Origin: Xylographa opegraphella
Taxonomy: Eukaryota
Length of the DNA: 64,000 bases
Direction of reading: 5' to 3'
NCBI GenBank assembly: GCA_022813865.1
Contig: JALDZX010000002.1
Location: 434,001-498,000, forward strand
A model generated the notes under the pieces. The model saw only the letters and a program-made list of their open reading frames with translations, searched no databases and was not told the origin of the DNA. Both the position numbers and the translations under genes were made by a program. Numbering within the stretch: the stretch's first letter is position 1; each line of letters begins with the position of its first letter. Below, piece by piece: positions 24,362-31,472 of this stretch.

Positions 24362-27300
24362 TCACCCACCCAGCCGCTCCTCTCTCTGGCCCACGAGAAC
24401 GTCCCCCAAAGCGTCCTCTACCCCACCTACTGCCTCCGCCTCCCGAACCACGCCACTACCAAAGACCGCCTCGTTCAGCGCCTCCATCCTATCCAGGCCC
24501 TGACTGAACTCCGGCTCCATGCCCTCGAACCCCTGCGGGTGCTGCCGCGCCTGCTCACGCAACTGGCCCGGCATTGCAAGCATCCCCACCAGCAGCTCCG
24601 GCGTGCTCGCTTCTTCGCGCTGCTCGTGCGTGTACACGTGGTTGGGCAGCGATGTCAGGCCCTGGAGTGCCTCTTCTTCCTGCTGCATCAGCTGGTGATA
24701 GTGTGCGGGCTCGAGGGCGTGCTGGTAAAGGGAGGGATATGAAGGTGCGTCAGTCACTGGCACGGCGGGTTTGGGCTGCTCCCAGTGGTCTACTTCGAGC
24801 TTGAAGTGTTGGTCGTGCGTGGGTGGCTGGCTGTGTGATTGAGTGGTCGTGATGACGGATGGGCTGCGGAAGACTTGGTGCGGATAGTCGTCGACTGTAC
24901 CGGGAGGGAGGGTGTGGTCTTGATCGTGCGGGAGGTATTGCCAGTCCTGGTTGAGGTGTGACAGCTGGGTGTGAAACTGCTCGCTGTGCGGATCGGGTTC
25001 GGTTTGCGCGAGGAGATGCTGTTCTCCTTGGTGGTGGAGGGTGTGTAGTTCGGCAGTTGGGGAGATGGACTCCACGCCTTCATAGCTAGCAGGAGGGTGT
25101 TGCGGTAGGTTGATATGATCGTGGCTATGATCGTAGTCGAGTTGAATATTCCAGCTCGTGAGGTCGATTTCGAGGTTGGGATCAGTGGTATGTGGTAGAT
25201 AGTTGGTGCTAATATCGCTGGAGAAACTGTCAACGGTTGACTGGGATGCGAAATCGGTATCGGTAGACCGAGGCGTAAACTCATTGTTTGTTGGTTGGGG
25301 CGAGATGTCTAAGGCGACGGGCTGAGTGGCAAACTGGCTTAAGGTGTGAGCTGCTTGTTCGTGGCTTTTGTAGTGATGCAACTCGTAATTTGCGTGGTGA
25401 AGCGGATCGCCGAAGCCGTTACCATCCATATCGTGCACGAGGGACTGCAGTACTTCGTGTTCAACTGGGTAAGATGCTCTTTCAGCGAGGTAGTGTGAGC
25501 CGCTGTGGTCTTCCATGCCATAGGTCTGTGTACTTGGGCTTTGGAACATGAGTTCCGTAGGATAACCAGCTTGTCTTGATTGGTTCGGTGATTCCATCTT
25601 GAAGTCCGTCATGACAATCTCTTGCGGCAAATCATGCATCCCCTCAGCAACTTCATCATATTCATTCCACCCTGTATTATTTTGGGCGTGTGGTTGCAGC
25701 GGTAGTTCAGGATATGGATGCGATGTATATTCATAGCCTGACAAGCTCGGAAGTTGAGAATCCGATGTCAAAGGTGGCTGCGCCAGTTGAGGCGTCGAAG
25801 AACTCGTTGGAGCTTGGAATGAAGATTTGTGGAGCTTCCTCCATGTGGTTGTTGCTGCTTCTCCCGGCAGTGTTTGGCGGAACTTCCAGAGTAGTATAAA
25901 TATGGGGAATGAAGCCGAGAGATCCAGATTCGTATCCTTGTCATCTGATGCAAAAATTTCCTGCATCACCGAGAGCTCACTAATATTTTGGCGTGTTTCG
26001 TTCTCATACTGGTAAAATCCTTGCATATCTCCAGCAGCTTTAATAGCACATCGACGTTCCATAATGTTGTAAAAGAGCTGGACCCACCATTTGCTCGATA
26101 AGGGAATGATCACTCGGCTTCTTTGCGAGTCCGTGAGCTGCGGAGTGTCAAGCTGACCAGAGCACTCTTTATTGAGGTTGCCTTTCATGTAGAATCTGGT
26201 TCGATATACCCAAGGCGGGCTAAGTCCTGGACCAGAGATATCCGCAAACAATTGAATCGCCAGGCTAGACTTGGGTGGGCAGTAGTCCTTCATGAGCTCG
26301 AGATTGGCTTCAAGCAGGATGATTTCTCCTTTAGATGGAGAGCTGTTATTGTATATCTTGGTCAAGTCCGGGAACGTCTGCCTCCAATTGCAATTGTCTT
26401 GTAGCATTTTAGGTTGTGCTCCCATTTCATCTTGTATCTGTGTATATATGTGACATGTTTGTGTCTCCAAATGATAGTCGTTTGCTTGTGGGAAAACGCT
26501 CATGTTGAGCTCGATGTTCTGGACAAAAGGGTAATCTGGAAAGCTCGATCCAAGGGTCTTGGTAGGGAGAGGAAGCGTTCCTCCATTAGGGTTGGCTGCT
26601 AGCGATCGAGCACAATGTCCCGAGGATTGAGAACGATCCTTGAAGATTAGCTTTCCTTTAACTGAGTCGTATTCTATAGCGCCTGCTGGCGGCTCTGATT
26701 TGACGAAGTCCAACCCTAGCAATGCTCAGCATGATGCGTTTATCGCGTTCCTGGGGTCCCTTAACAACTCACATTCGGGGTCCTTGATCATCCCTTGAAG
26801 CACCTGTATATGGCTCGATATTTGCTTTCGTGAACGTTTGACTCCGGTTAACAACTCGATCTTATGAGCGAGCAGCTCGTTTCTCCCAGACGATTTCTGT
26901 ATACCTTTTTCTGACTTCAAAGGCGTCTTCAATCTCCCAATGCGGGGAATGTCGAGAAGTGCTGGGGTACATTTAGTTCAGAACATGTAAGAGTCAACAT
27001 AATTTTTGAGCCTACCGGCTTGAAACGCTTCCTCAACAAAATCCGGCCATATCTCCTTGCCGTCCTTGCCACGATCTTTACGACCTCGCCTCCTGTACTG
27101 GAGATACCTGCCATAATCGTGCTCACTCAACAGTGGTAATGGCTTACTTTTCCGAGTCCGCGGTTTAGCAACACATGGTTCGCTGACTGATTTAGCCTCT
27201 TGAGGATAATCAATTTGTTTTGTCGTAGGAGAAAGAGGCTTCTTGCTTGTGGAGCACCGGCGACATAATCCCCTGTTGTTTCCAGCAGGTGATTGAAGTT

Positions 27301-27658
27301 CTCCAGCAGTTTCCGCTCCATCAAAAGTTCGGCCACAATTGCTGCAGATCGGACGTCTACGTCGAGGCTTTTGCTCCGTATTATGTTGCTTGAGATGAGT
27401 GGACATATCACGAAAATGTATATTTTGATCGCAAATATGGCACAGGTTTGTTCTGACCCCATGACTAGAGACCTCAGATTCGGCTTCCTGATGAGAAGAT
27501 GATGGATTGAGACCATAAGAAGCTTGTTCTATTTCCTGCTTTGATAGATCTCCTTCATCAGCGCGAGTATAATTTGAATTGCTGGATGTACTGCATAGAA
27601 CTCCCCGAGGAGCCCTTGTATGGTGCTGAGATGCTGGAAACTGAGGGAGGAGAACCAT
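24362..27658 (-). CDS. abaA: TEA/ATTS-domain transcription factor, AbaA-like, 3 exons
   Basis: YLQYR...DGKEIWPDFVEEAFQA/ALLDIP...GRNELLAHKIELLTGVKRSRKQISSHIQVL is a TEA domain. AbaA-type ELSVMQEIFA...ILLWKFRQT...TTTWRKL follows downstream. Strict orthology not shown. Confidence 0.85.
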
Positions 27659-28244
27659 CGTTGCGTTCCACGAGCTGCAGGAATATGCTCAAGTGTGGTG
27701 GAATGAATGCGAATAATGATCATACGTGAAGGAGGGATGGACATAGTTTGACATGAAAGGAGAGCCTTCTCATGACTTGTTATAGAAAGTCGGAAGGAGG
27801 CCCAACATCAGGGGGCAATTAGACACCAAGGGTGGTAAAATACGACTATAAGACATTAAAAACGTGCTTTCAAGACAGCTATAATGAGCTCAGCATGGAC
27901 CACAATTGTGATAGGGGCAAGCGCTCAAAGCATGATAGGCTGATCGATATGCAAGCAAGGGGAAGCTTGCGCTCCCCGAGAGAAGCGCCCACGGAGCCCA
28001 ATAATGGTTAGCTCAAAGGGGTAGCTTAGGCGACCTTGCGAAGCTGGGTCAGACAGAGAATGTTATGATGCCAGGACAACGGAAGATGAAAAGGGAATGA
28101 AGGGTTGGAACCATAATCATACTTGTTACCTGTATACATGGTAACCAGCTTTCAATGGAGAATGAAATGAAGCAGTAGATTCATATGTAGGCGATTATAG
28201 TCTATGCAAGAGTGCTCTTGACTCACTGTACCCAGCCTGAATCT

Positions 28245-31072
28245 TTAGTTATCATCGGCATCCTCCGCTCCGGGGACAGTAAATTTTCTCCTCCCAGAAC
28301 TGGTAAGTTTCTGGATGGCAATCTTATCAGCTTGCTTTCCGACCTTCTTTTGCATTTTCTCAATCTCCTCTTCTGGATCAACGGCATCGCCGACTGCAAA
28401 ATCTAAGACCAATCTCCTTCCGAGCAGATGCGTATCGCGAAGTGCATCCATCGCACTTTCAGCTTCCCGGGCCGTCACAAAATCTGCGAAGGCGAAACCG
28501 CGAGTGGAGTTGTCGAACTTTCTTGGAACTCGGACAGATCGTAGTTGTCCGTAGGCACCGAACAGAGAGCGAATATCCTTCTTTGAAGCTTCGAAGGGAA
28601 GATTCTTAACAATGATCTTCGTTCTTCTCCCGGACAGCTTTTTAGCTGTGTCTTCCTTCCTACGTTCTTCCGCAGCGTCTGCAGCTTTGTGGGACGCCTT
28701 AAGGACAAGATCATGCCCTTGGAGCTTGTAACCGTTCATTGCTGCCAGTGCTGCTTGGGCTTGCTGTTTGGTACGAAATTCTAAGAACCCAAAGCCCATA
28801 CTGAGGATCTGACCCGGCCTTTTAGGATCCGTCTTTGTTTTTACTCGAGCCGACATAAACCCATCCAATGGCCGAAACAGCTCAGTCAGCTGCTGCGTTG
28901 TCGTGGTGAAATTAAGATTGCGCACAAACAATGTAGCGGTACTGTTCTCAGTTTCAACGGTTGGATCTTCTAGCAAGTCGGCGGCCAATAATTTAGTGCT
29001 TGTTATAGTGCTTGATACAGTATCGGCATTTGGAACACCCTCTACCTCAAAGACACCTTTGGGTGCTTTTTCTAAGAATAATATGGAGTCCTTGAACTTA
29101 CGATATGCCAGAGCCCCGAAAGCAGATTTTGCTTGTACGGGTTGATCAAGCTCGACAATCGCAATTGTACCTGCAGGTGGCATCAACACCTTTTTGACAG
29201 TTCCGTAAGCCTCAAATATATTCTTGAGTTCTTCCGGGCTTGTGCCGTACGAGAAGTTTTTAACCAATATGGCTGTATCGCTGAAGTCCTTCTTTTGGAA
29301 AGCATCAAGGTTGACACCACAAGCAACAAAATACGCCTTTGTCTCCTGTATGATGTTTGTCTCAGCATGGGCTTGTTTGACAGCAGCTTCTGATGATGTT
29401 GGATCCAGGATATGCGACTTTGCTATGCCAAGTCGATTCGAGATAGAAGACATGATGGCATCAGACTAACCGCGAGTAAGCACTTGCACACCTAGGCTAC
29501 GGTCCTGGTAAGAACATACATTCATGTACATTGAATTCCATTTGAATGTCGACGAAGCTGCCTCAGCTTTTTGCCGTATCTGCTTCTGTTTCTTAAGAGG
29601 AAGCTTGGAAATTTCATACTCGTCCAATGTGTGGTCTTTCTTAGCAGATGCGGGGAGTATATGGAGAAGCCGACCTTGGAAAGCCTTTCCATCCAGTTCC
29701 GTGAGCGCTGTTTGTGCGTTGTCCGGATTATCGTACTCAACATAAGCAAAACCTTTGCTGGTCTCTGTCCGCGTCTCTGTAGAAATGTGGACCTTAATAT
29801 CTGTTAGTTGATATCACAAGCAGTCATGTCTGGACAGCTATGCAACAAGGAACGAACAACGATCTTCAGAAATCAAGAAGCATCTACTACAACGCTCTTC
29901 CTGCTCACATCATTTGCAATAACATAAGATGTCCCTATCAGGATGTTCATCACAAGATCAAGCCAGAAGCTGCTATATAGAGAGAAAAGTGGTTACCTCG
30001 GTTAGAGCGCCGTGACGGCTGAAGTATGCATACAAGTCATCCTCAGAAGTTGCGTACGAGAGATTTCGCACGAAAAGCCGATTGGTGGGCAGAGACTCCT
30101 CAATCCTATTTTTTGAACGATCATTCTGCGAATCATCTATTTCTGCTGCACGGTGAAGCATTACCTCGTCTGTCTGGCTGCCAGCGTTTGAGGTGCGCCT
30201 CTTTGGCTCGTGCGGCTTTGCATAAAAGTCTGTGCCATCCGGCTCATTATCTTCTGTCGTTGTAGGATTCGGGAGGACAGCGTCATCATCATCGACTAAT
30301 CCAAGTAGCCGGCTTGTACGAGAGCGAAGCCAATCAACATCGGAGAACGCTGCCAATGCAGGCTCTGACGGCACTGGTAGGAATTTGTCTTCTGAGTCTT
30401 TTGTCAAGATAATGTCTGGACGCTGGGTCTCTGTCACTTGGTCCACGCTTGAGACCACCTGTTGGCCATGGGAGTTCTCCGGTGGTGATACGGCAAGAGG
30501 CGACTTCTTGCGCTTCTTGGGCACGGGCTCATAATCTTCTTCACTCAAATCGTCCTTCTGTGGCACCTCTACTGACTCCACAACTGTTGTGCTATTGGCT
30601 CCGTTTCCTGTCGCACCTTCATTTGCCCATATCTTACTCTTGGATGGCGGCTGCATGACCTCTAGAAATTCCTGGAGTTTAGTGTTTGTGGACTTCTCAA
30701 GCTTGTCGGCCAATTTCCGCTTTCCCGACGATGGTGTATCATCATTCGGAGGGGTAGGTAGCTTTGTAGGATTTAAGGATTTCTTGTCTTCAATCTGTGA
30801 GTTGCTTAGCAAATGATATAGAGTCTCGACTGCCGAGTGCTTACTGGCCTGGCAAGCTCCACGGCAATCCTCGACATGCGGATGTAGGACTTGTTGAAAT
30901 ATTTGACAGCTTTTGCAGCATCATTAGAGTCTTTGTATCCAACATAGCCAATACGCCGATGAGATATTAGCTTTGCGTCAGTCACAGCGGACGTTGTAGA
31001 AAAGTGCTTTTCGAACTCTTCCGCACCTAGATTTGGCGGAAGCCCGCGAACAAAAATTCTCGAAGACTCCAT
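28245..31072 (-). CDS. MRD1: Multiple RNA-binding domain protein 1 (pre-rRNA processing; RBM19 family), 4 exons
   Basis: Starts SSRIFVRGLPP and has five RRMs (LFVRNL, ILVKNF, SMGFGFLEF, RGFAFADF...THLLGRRLVL). Confidence 0.96.
29861..29959 (-). ncRNA. Intronic box C/D snoRNA, snR64-like (predicted guide for the LSU rRNA Cm2337-equivalent site)
   Basis: Inside the 204-nt MRD1 intron (29793-29996): terminal stem GATCT/AGATC, box C GTGATGA and box D CTGA. The guide GATAGGGACA is complementary to conserved LSU UGUCCCUAUC and precedes a D'-like CTTA. Confidence 0.85.
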
Positions 31073-31472
31073 TTTGGAGCAGCTCGGCCACTACTTCACG
31101 GAGATAATTAGACTCGGAGACATTATTCCCATGATTTGTCATGAGCGGTTTCAGAAAATCTTCCCTTGCCTCACAAATAAGCTGTATAAATTTATTTTCG
31201 ATGCACGGTTCTCTCCGCCATTGGCACAAGCGAGCCCGCTACGACACGAATACGCTAAGACTACCCCCGCTTGATCGCTTGTCATGGCTAGACTAGCGCT
31301 GTATTGACCAGTGCGCGAGGCATTCGTCGTGTTGTTGGTCTAGAAGCCTCGTCATTTCTTCATCGAAGAAAGCGGCGCATTACTTTGAGCCGCCGTTCAC
31401 TGTCGCAGACCTAGTAACCAGATACTTGCGATCGTCAAAGACTCTGCAGACTTTTCTGAGCAGGTTATAACA

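Follow-up and report, generated by a model that had tools for sequence, protein, structure and literature searches.

A predicted two-zinc module related to Ufd1-like fingers in the AbaA-type TEA factor gene of Xylographa opegraphella

The stretch analysed here, referred to as the window, comprises 64,000 nucleotides (nt) of Xylographa opegraphella (assembly GCA_022813865.1, contig JALDZX010000002.1, positions 434,001 to 498,000 of the forward strand). On its minus strand, at 24362..27658 (stop codon counted), we predict a TEA/ATTS transcription factor gene of the AbaA type with three exons and 1061 amino acids. The gene carries an approximately 70-residue, predicted two-zinc module that, as we read the evidence, descends from the finger region of long Ufd1-like proteins, was captured in frame before Xylographa and Lambiella split, and has been kept under purifying selection; we place the probability of this reading at roughly 0.78. 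We hold its structural and evolutionary part with high confidence, as in-frame anatomy, homology, distribution across species and ligand conservation are all shown directly. A preliminary description of the locus had proposed that capture of a gene fragment created a chimeric developmental regulator, and the core of that proposal is supported by the homology and by the derived state of the finger within AbaA.

The module and its Ufd1-like relatives

The module spans 27254..27463 (minus strand; residues 66-135) and lies wholly within exon 1 (27658..27016, minus strand, with the ATG at 27658; residues 1-214 and one further base), in which a conserved N-terminus is followed by the finger module, a linker, a basic pre-TEA region and the start of the TEA domain. 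Translation of 27463..27254 yields HGVRTNLCHICDQNIHFRDMSTHLKQH ... GLCRRC, exactly the peptide quoted in the preliminary description. Finger 1 (27383..27442, minus strand) has the form C73-x2-C76-x11-H88-x3-H92 and is predicted to adopt a beta-beta-alpha arrangement, while the second zinc site (27254..27346, minus strand), a C4 knuckle or ribbon, is composed of C105-x2-C108, a GRT motif, an 18-residue loop and C132-x2-C135. The CCHH finger and the two additional CxxC pairs described earlier are therefore all in place, the spacing being x11 and not the x10 originally given, and the eight Cys and His residues presumably bind two zinc ions. Between the ATG and the donor site of exon 1 the finger frame stays open over 214 codons, and a stop codon of the same frame lies shortly 5' of the ATG. 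This agrees with the earlier statement that the finger is in frame, free of introns and upstream of the TEA domain, from which it is separated by about 65-68 residues. A Logan contig of 87,048 nt (depth 162) spans the locus with 0 differences over 26700-27760, which argues against a local assembly chimera, a concern raised at the outset; the assembly may itself have been built from that run, making this a check of the assembly and not independent data. Membership of the TEA family is given by exon 2 alone, which matches PF01285 with 46.4 bits (cut-off 25.1, E 5e-12).

A phmmer search with an 82-residue segment against 1.84e9 representative proteins (E<=1e-3) returned 16 matches, made up of ten Ufd1-like proteins, two of the AbaA type (P0005, with 73% identity, and P0002) and four multi-finger or repeat proteins. 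The ten Ufd1-like matches have E-values from 2.2e-8 to 3.6e-4 and 37-47% identity over query residues 5-74, the best E-value coinciding with 47%. The resemblance to Ufd1-like fingers noted in the preliminary description is thereby borne out, and the segment searched by itself returned the Ufd1-like matches that had been expected. The four multi-finger or repeat proteins (P0006, P0008, P0017, P0019) match via repeated generic fingers and were dropped as clues to origin. By Pfam, the ten combine UFD1_N1, UFD1_N2, DUF7590, Znf_XAF1_N, TRAFD1-XIAF1_ZnF and AZUL, some of them missing one or the other finger family; UFD1_N1 and UFD1_N2 are found in eight, and the remaining two are shorter, with C-terminal domains only. 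The named members stem from Neofusicoccum ribis, Pseudopithomyces chartarum, Aspergillus multicolor (KAL4902866.1, annotated 'putative ubiquitin fusion degradation protein (Ufd1)'), Hirsutella minnesotensis and Thielaviopsis punctulata. Going by the class of each named genus, the carriers presumably represent at least three classes. A profile of the whole Ufd1-like alignment matched solved structures of the Ufd1 N-domain (1zc1, E 1.8e-21), the FLN29/TRAFD1 zf-TRAF finger (1.7e-4) and the UBE3A AZUL domain (0.011). The region homologous to our module is located between the TRAFD1/XAF1-type finger(s) and AZUL.

The relationship was also recovered in the opposite direction. When 1322 sequences (1309 open reading frames (ORFs) of the window and 13 TEA proteins) were searched with a hidden Markov model (HMM) made solely of the finger segments of the ten Ufd1-like proteins, only four scored, all of them AbaA N-termini: P0005 (56.3 bits, E 2.2e-16), the window ORF (54.8 bits, E 6.5e-16), P0036 of Lambiella insularis (40.9 bits, E 1.4e-11) and P0002 (31.2 bits, E 1.5e-8). 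The score of the window is partly circular, as the ten segments were picked for matching it; that of Lambiella is not, and neither is a BLASTP comparison of the Lambiella protein with the Neofusicoccum Ufd1-like protein (E 3e-10). The gene itself is not Ufd1-like and holds a fragment only: no UFD1 family was detected by Pfam at E<=1 in the three exon translations. As the captured piece leaves out both the UFD1 ubiquitin-binding head and AZUL, the earlier suggestion that the factor had gained a degradation module was overstated. Two further searches gave no additional carriers. A word-index search of longer proteins, for which the finger region was the sole query, produced six candidates, none of which scored, and a metagenome scan at the Joint Genome Institute (JGI) with the alignment of finger-bearing N-termini produced 591 pattern matches, 0 of which were confirmed by tblastn.

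Distribution and constraint

Relatives were collected with region 55-330 of the X. pallens protein as query, giving 18 TEA relatives, mostly Lecanoromycete, of which 15 were read (P0040, P0041 and P0044 were left out). The window, P0005 (X. vitiligo-like), P0002 (X. pallens) and P0036 (Lambiella insularis) carry the finger. P0002 begins at a Met within finger 1, and over the six ligands that it covers both His and the four knuckle Cys are kept; homologous DNA is present in X. trunciseda as well. The models of eight relatives, Trapelia coarctata among them, are N-terminally truncated or in the wrong frame and hence uninformative. Among orthologues with complete N-termini, the CxxC...H...H pattern is absent in five, from Caloplaca, Pyrenodesmia, Xanthomendoza, Gallowayella and Candelina. 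The TEA tryptophan falls at 124-136 in these five versus 200-227 in the finger-bearing proteins (residue 204 in our 1061-residue model), and their TEA domain begins 64-103 residues earlier.

Presence in Xylographa and Lambiella combined with absence from the five other Lecanoromycete orthologues points to a capture in the ancestor of the Xylographaceae or before. Both genera are members of this family, within a trapelioid clade reported to have been diversifying from 150-200 million years (Ma) ago (PMC6234878). In an unrooted tree a branch with support 89/95 sets the three full AbaA fingers apart from the Ufd1-like ones, consistent with a single capture, and the simplest history would be one such event before the Xylographa-Lambiella split. 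The alignment of orthologues that had been proposed for dating the insertion shows it as old and family-wide, being common to Lambiella, and not as specific to one species. In the scenario that we favor, the N-terminal region of the TEA gene would have received an in-frame copy of a fragment of a Ufd1-like gene, after separation from the lineages of the Teloschistales and Candelina orthologues and before the divergence of Xylographa and Lambiella. The product would be a CCHH beta-beta-alpha finger plus a C4 knuckle, tethered ahead of the TEA domain and retained since then under purifying selection.

Indeed, all eight ligand positions are invariant in the 13-sequence alignment, along with R8, R38, N46, R49 and L70 (segment numbering). 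Considering this invariance and the significant homologues, the module is not a chance run of cysteines. Compared with the window, P0005 and Lambiella respectively are 59% and 32% identical in the N-terminus, 73% and 37% in the finger module, 43% and 11% in the linker, and 88% and 67% in the pre-TEA region, with 8/8 zinc ligands identical in both. Of the non-ligand module positions, 18/62 are identical between the window and Lambiella. At the protein level, purifying selection on the zinc-binding fold is supported.

The edges of the module display some variation. The first knuckle pair is C-x4-C in Lambiella and in all ten Ufd1-like proteins and C-x2-C in Xylographa, and a faint likeness (F..Y...EG) extends past the last CxxC in Lambiella (P0036 139-165 vs P0007 452-479). 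This suggests that the captured fragment may originally have reached slightly further towards AZUL, and that Xylographa may later have lost two residues of the first knuckle pair. At the other end, RGVLCSTSSNSNYTR (exon 1 residues 18-32) resembles a V-L-x-x-S-S-G-N-x-x-S-Y-R stretch close to the N-termini of the finger-less P0038, P0042 and P0043, which MAFFT left unaligned. If the two stretches correspond, the module would have landed between a pair of older AbaA motifs and not at an end.

Possible function and alternative readings of the module

Several results weigh against the reading preferred here, and they concern fold, reading frame and origin. AlphaFold2, run on the 13-row alignment, gave a mean predicted local distance difference test score (pLDDT) of 66.4; finger 1 is well defined (strands at segment 9-11 and 18-20, helix at 21-34, pLDDT 83-89), and the second zinc site reaches only 46-71. 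The Pfam matches of the segment all fall under their curated cut-offs: Zf-C2H2_ZNF451_C with 24.3 bits, TRAFD1-XIAF1_ZnF (PF21366) with 17.8 bits against a cut-off of 27, and zf_UBZ (PF18439) with 9.7 bits against 25.6. PF21366 is likewise missed by P0005 (18.2 bits) and by the corresponding finger of the Ufd1-like relatives (19.7-25.4 bits). Structure comparison gave weak matches. Foldseek against the PDB found 0 at E<=1e-3, with FLN29 zf-TRAF as the best match (E 0.7), and VIA-align over 48,161 chains found two with Z>=2, the better being the Pol eta UBZ (Z 2.5, root-mean-square deviation (rmsd) 2.4 Å, 31 residues). With regard to frame, a log-odds score of codon usage, for which three coding stretches of the window served as training set, fails to discriminate between the finger frame and the overlapping +1 frame (-0.012 vs -0.023 bits per codon), and GC content at third codon positions (GC3) is low in the finger frame (0.36 vs 0.57 in exon 3) and favors +1. 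As for origin, the donor lineage and the direction of transfer are read from distribution alone, because the Ufd1-like side of the tree is not resolved and the sample holds no Ufd1-like protein known to be Lecanoromycete.

Beyond the best structural match, the weak Foldseek rows include the RAD18 and WRNIP1 UBZ fingers (E 1.2-4.9) and also the C2H2 proteins ADR1, SALL4 and CTCF. The Atlas feature neighbours are CEP104, XAF1, TRAFD1 and UBZ clusters (0.89-0.92), which are leads only. Aggregated, the finger weakly resembles the TRAFD1/XAF1/UBZ kind. The TRAFD1/XAF1, CEP104 and UBZ families are protein- or ubiquitin-binding, and a comparable role may apply to the module. By analogy, the module might then form a protein-interaction surface for ubiquitin or another partner rather than DNA, providing a new regulatory input, a proposal that we advance tentatively. 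The more specific version, in which a developmental master regulator gained a ubiquitin-reading finger from a Ufd1-like protein in an ancestor of this lichen family and kept it ever since, is doubtful. Were it true, a TEA factor would be coupled directly to ubiquitin signalling, for example through docking on ubiquitylated chromatin or cofactors, or through handover to Cdc48 or the proteasome. To our knowledge, no TEA/TEAD factor is known to be controlled in this manner.

The main functional rival is an accessory nucleic-acid-binding finger that extends or alters the DNA or RNA specificity of the TEA domain. Finger 1 is predicted to be a CCHH beta-beta-alpha unit, the window has a basic stretch (KPRRRRP) between the two zinc sites, the module is situated near the DNA-binding domain, and ADR1, SALL4 and CTCF appear among the weak structural rows, all of which is congruent with such a role. 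Classical C2H2 fingers follow the spacing C-x2-4-C-x12-H-x3-5-H. The module, however, has x11 in place of x12, and none of the classical C2H2 models PF00096, PF13894 and PF13465 matches at E<=1. The nearest families by Pfam, Atlas and fold are moreover TRAFD1/XAF1, CEP104 and UBZ, and the donor family is a ubiquitin-pathway protein. Additionally, the basic linker leading to the knuckle is not kept, reading KSRERTS in P0005 and KLRLNRVKAG in Lambiella. Accessory binding of nucleic acid is therefore unlikely.

A translated relic of an old insertion, no longer folding or functional and drifting, would account for the long branches of the AbaA fingers (1.98 for Lambiella and 1.07 for the stem of the two Xylographa sequences, against a median end branch of 0.24), for the two residues lost from the first knuckle pair in Xylographa and for the low model confidence at the knuckle. 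Yet the eight ligands are kept in the window, P0005 and Lambiella, as are all six of those covered in P0002, and whether P0005 or Lambiella is compared with the window, identity is higher in the module than in the N-terminus or the linker that flank it. Diversification of the trapelioid clade from 150-200 Ma, as given in PMC6234878, would also have left ample time for unconstrained decay. We consider a relic very unlikely, and return to a retained module as the preferred reading.

Slighter still is the chance that the deposited annotation is right, in which case the finger DNA would be read in the +1 frame (ATG 27462, intron 27147..27098) or form an untranslated leader, and the finger likeness would be accidental. 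A word-index search with exon 1 retrieved three Xylographa TEA proteins. P0004, deposited for X. opegraphella itself ('Transcriptional enhancer factor TEF-1', 979 amino acids), is reproduced 979/979 by ATG 27462..27148 followed by 27097 onward, which means that this annotation translates the finger DNA in frame +1. Its N-terminus corresponds to a +1 open frame of 133 codons (27127..27528, minus strand) that overlaps the finger, and it implies a 50-nt intron (27098..27147, minus strand, GTAAGC..CTCCAG) which is probably not real despite a good GTAAGC..CAG outline. P0003 of X. trunciseda uses the same frame, its first 58 residues being 48% identical to the +1 translation of the window (E 1e-13). 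Codon usage shows no preference for the finger frame, and it is the +1 frame that has the GC3 pattern of exon 3; both were set aside as arbiters of frame in favor of homology.

The homology is hard to reconcile with this annotation. A non-coding frame would not be expected to match an unrelated family at E 2e-8 across 1.84e9 proteins, nor to preserve 8/8 Cys and His between the window and Lambiella when 71% of the remaining positions in the module differ. The putative 50-nt intron would furthermore delete PLPLLSEHDYGRYLQ, including the YLQY motif, which is conserved in Lecanoromycete orthologues. The +1 ORF contains no Pfam family and has no homologues except the same DNA in a sister species, and a +1 run of at least 133 codons arises in 427/5000 codon shuffles of exon 1 (8.5%), as expected by composition. 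Two other sequences employ the finger frame from the same Met: P0005, an ENA-derived ORF whose C-terminal part equals the X. vitiligo model, runs from an MVLL start to the exon 1 donor site, and the deposited Lambiella model P0036 begins at the conserved Met. The least probable alternative, that the finger is ancestral to TEA/AbaA and was lost elsewhere, or that the Ufd1-like family took it from AbaA, draws on an unrooted tree that separates AbaA from Ufd1-like fingers without giving direction and on a sample of only five finger-less orthologues with full N-termini (Trapelia and other truncated models being uninformative), but the Ufd1-like module is set in a fixed multi-domain architecture, whereas the AbaA form is found only in Xylographa and Lambiella, with two AbaA-type clusters in the library-wide search.

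The deposited Xylographa models deserve a comment of their own. The six (P0002, P0003, P0004, P0032, P0033 and P0034) disagree at the N-terminus: two are in the +1 frame, two start from internal Mets (X. pallens P0002 at the finger-1 Met and X. vitiligo P0032 past the module) and two, those of X. bjoerkii and X. soralifera, are truncated further, into or past the TEA domain. The module is incomplete or missing in all six, and among deposited models is complete only in that of Lambiella. Proteome-based surveys of domain architecture will consequently miss it.

Gene model and comparison with known systems

Downstream of the module, the basic pre-TEA region (27050..27142, minus strand; residues 173-203, PLPLLSEHDYGRYLQYRRRGRKDRGKDGK) is conserved, and the Y of its Y-L-Q-Y stretch and the following R are unchanged in eight Lecanoromycete sequences. 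The TEA/ATTS DNA-binding domain (26773..27055, minus strand) begins at the end of exon 1, where EIWPDFVEEAFQA aligns with the TEA start in orthologues, is interrupted by intron 1 (26962..27015, minus strand, 54 nt, GT..AG) and continues in exon 2 (26961..26773, minus strand), to which the PF01285 match belongs. Intron 2 (26716..26772, minus strand, 57 nt, GT..AG) and exon 3 (26715..24362, minus strand) complete the gene. Both introns are common to P0004, and from Y188 on our model is identical to that protein. P0005 and Lambiella P0036 share the start Met and further N-terminal residues with the window (M1, L4, P8, Q11, R15, A16, R18 and others), and the TEA domain of the Lambiella orthologue scores 70.8 bits against PF01285.

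The short insertion that the preliminary description noticed in the TEA domain before GRNE exists, in that 44 residues of the protein are matched to 39 positions of the profile; loop length, however, varies across all Lecanoromycete orthologues read, and the feature is not specific to the present gene. The loop (26860-26930, minus strand) is located between the first two TEA helices and is about five residues longer than the Pfam consensus. It is five residues shorter in the X. pallens model than in the window, with further differences in Lambiella, in Trapelia and in the Teloschistales. An Atlas look-up of the region after the TEA domain gave no usable match. In the C-terminal region of Lambiella P0036 (about 622-650) we observed a PPTSQ tandem repeat of approximately five copies that is absent in the Xylographa proteins. 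The minus-strand neighbour at 28245-31090 encodes a protein with multiple RNA-recognition motifs (RRMs), of which three, of the RRM_1 type, lie in 28248-29465 (E 7e-44) and an incomplete one at the end of 29976-30920; it may be an Mrd1-type rRNA-processing factor.

Mead et al. 2020 (PMC7531577) regard the one TEA/ATTS gene that filamentous ascomycetes carry as abaA, with a single copy in 75/89 taxa. From this statement and the 18 relatives, the present gene is probably the orthologue of Aspergillus nidulans abaA. The word 'zinc' is absent from the main text of that survey (PMC7531577). Judged by titles and abstracts, literature on zinc fingers in AbaA/TEA proteins, on abaA in lichens and on the Ufd1-AZUL family yielded no description of such an architecture, nor any of the long Ufd1-like proteins of fungi as a family. 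A lineage-specific and dated exon-level domain capture in a core developmental regulator amounts to a natural experiment on the gaining of a new input. Moreover, the module is apparently able to work away from its original setting, which offers a handle on the finger of an unstudied Ufd1-like family. What we have is a well-supported case of a master regulator that captured a domain, although the organisms concerned are hard for experiments.

Three known systems bear comparison. With the TRAFD1 (FLN29)/XAF1 and UBZ fingers, the module shares the CCHH ligands and the predicted beta-beta-alpha form of finger 1, as well as sub-threshold Pfam matches and weak structure rows; it differs in that no curated cut-off is reached and no significant structural match is returned for the module. 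With the long Ufd1-like proteins of the Pezizomycotina it has in common the 70-residue finger region, including the eight ligands and the R, N, G-R-T and G-L-C motif residues, whereas the TEA gene is devoid of the UFD1 N-domain, DUF7590, Znf_XAF1_N and AZUL. Furthermore, the loop is 18 residues long in Xylographa and 24 in the Dothideomycete examples, Xylographa being shorter than most.

TEA/ATTS factors, such as AbaA, Tec1 and TEAD/Scalloped, are usually described as a DNA-binding domain combined with cofactor-binding regions. To AbaA/Tec1/TEAD (PF01285) the present gene corresponds in its TEA domain, in the basic pre-TEA stretch and in the long C-terminal region common to the 18 TEA relatives. 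It departs from them in that a two-zinc module separates the N-terminal motif from the TEA domain, unlike in the five other Lecanoromycete orthologues. We classify it as a TEA factor with a captured finger module.

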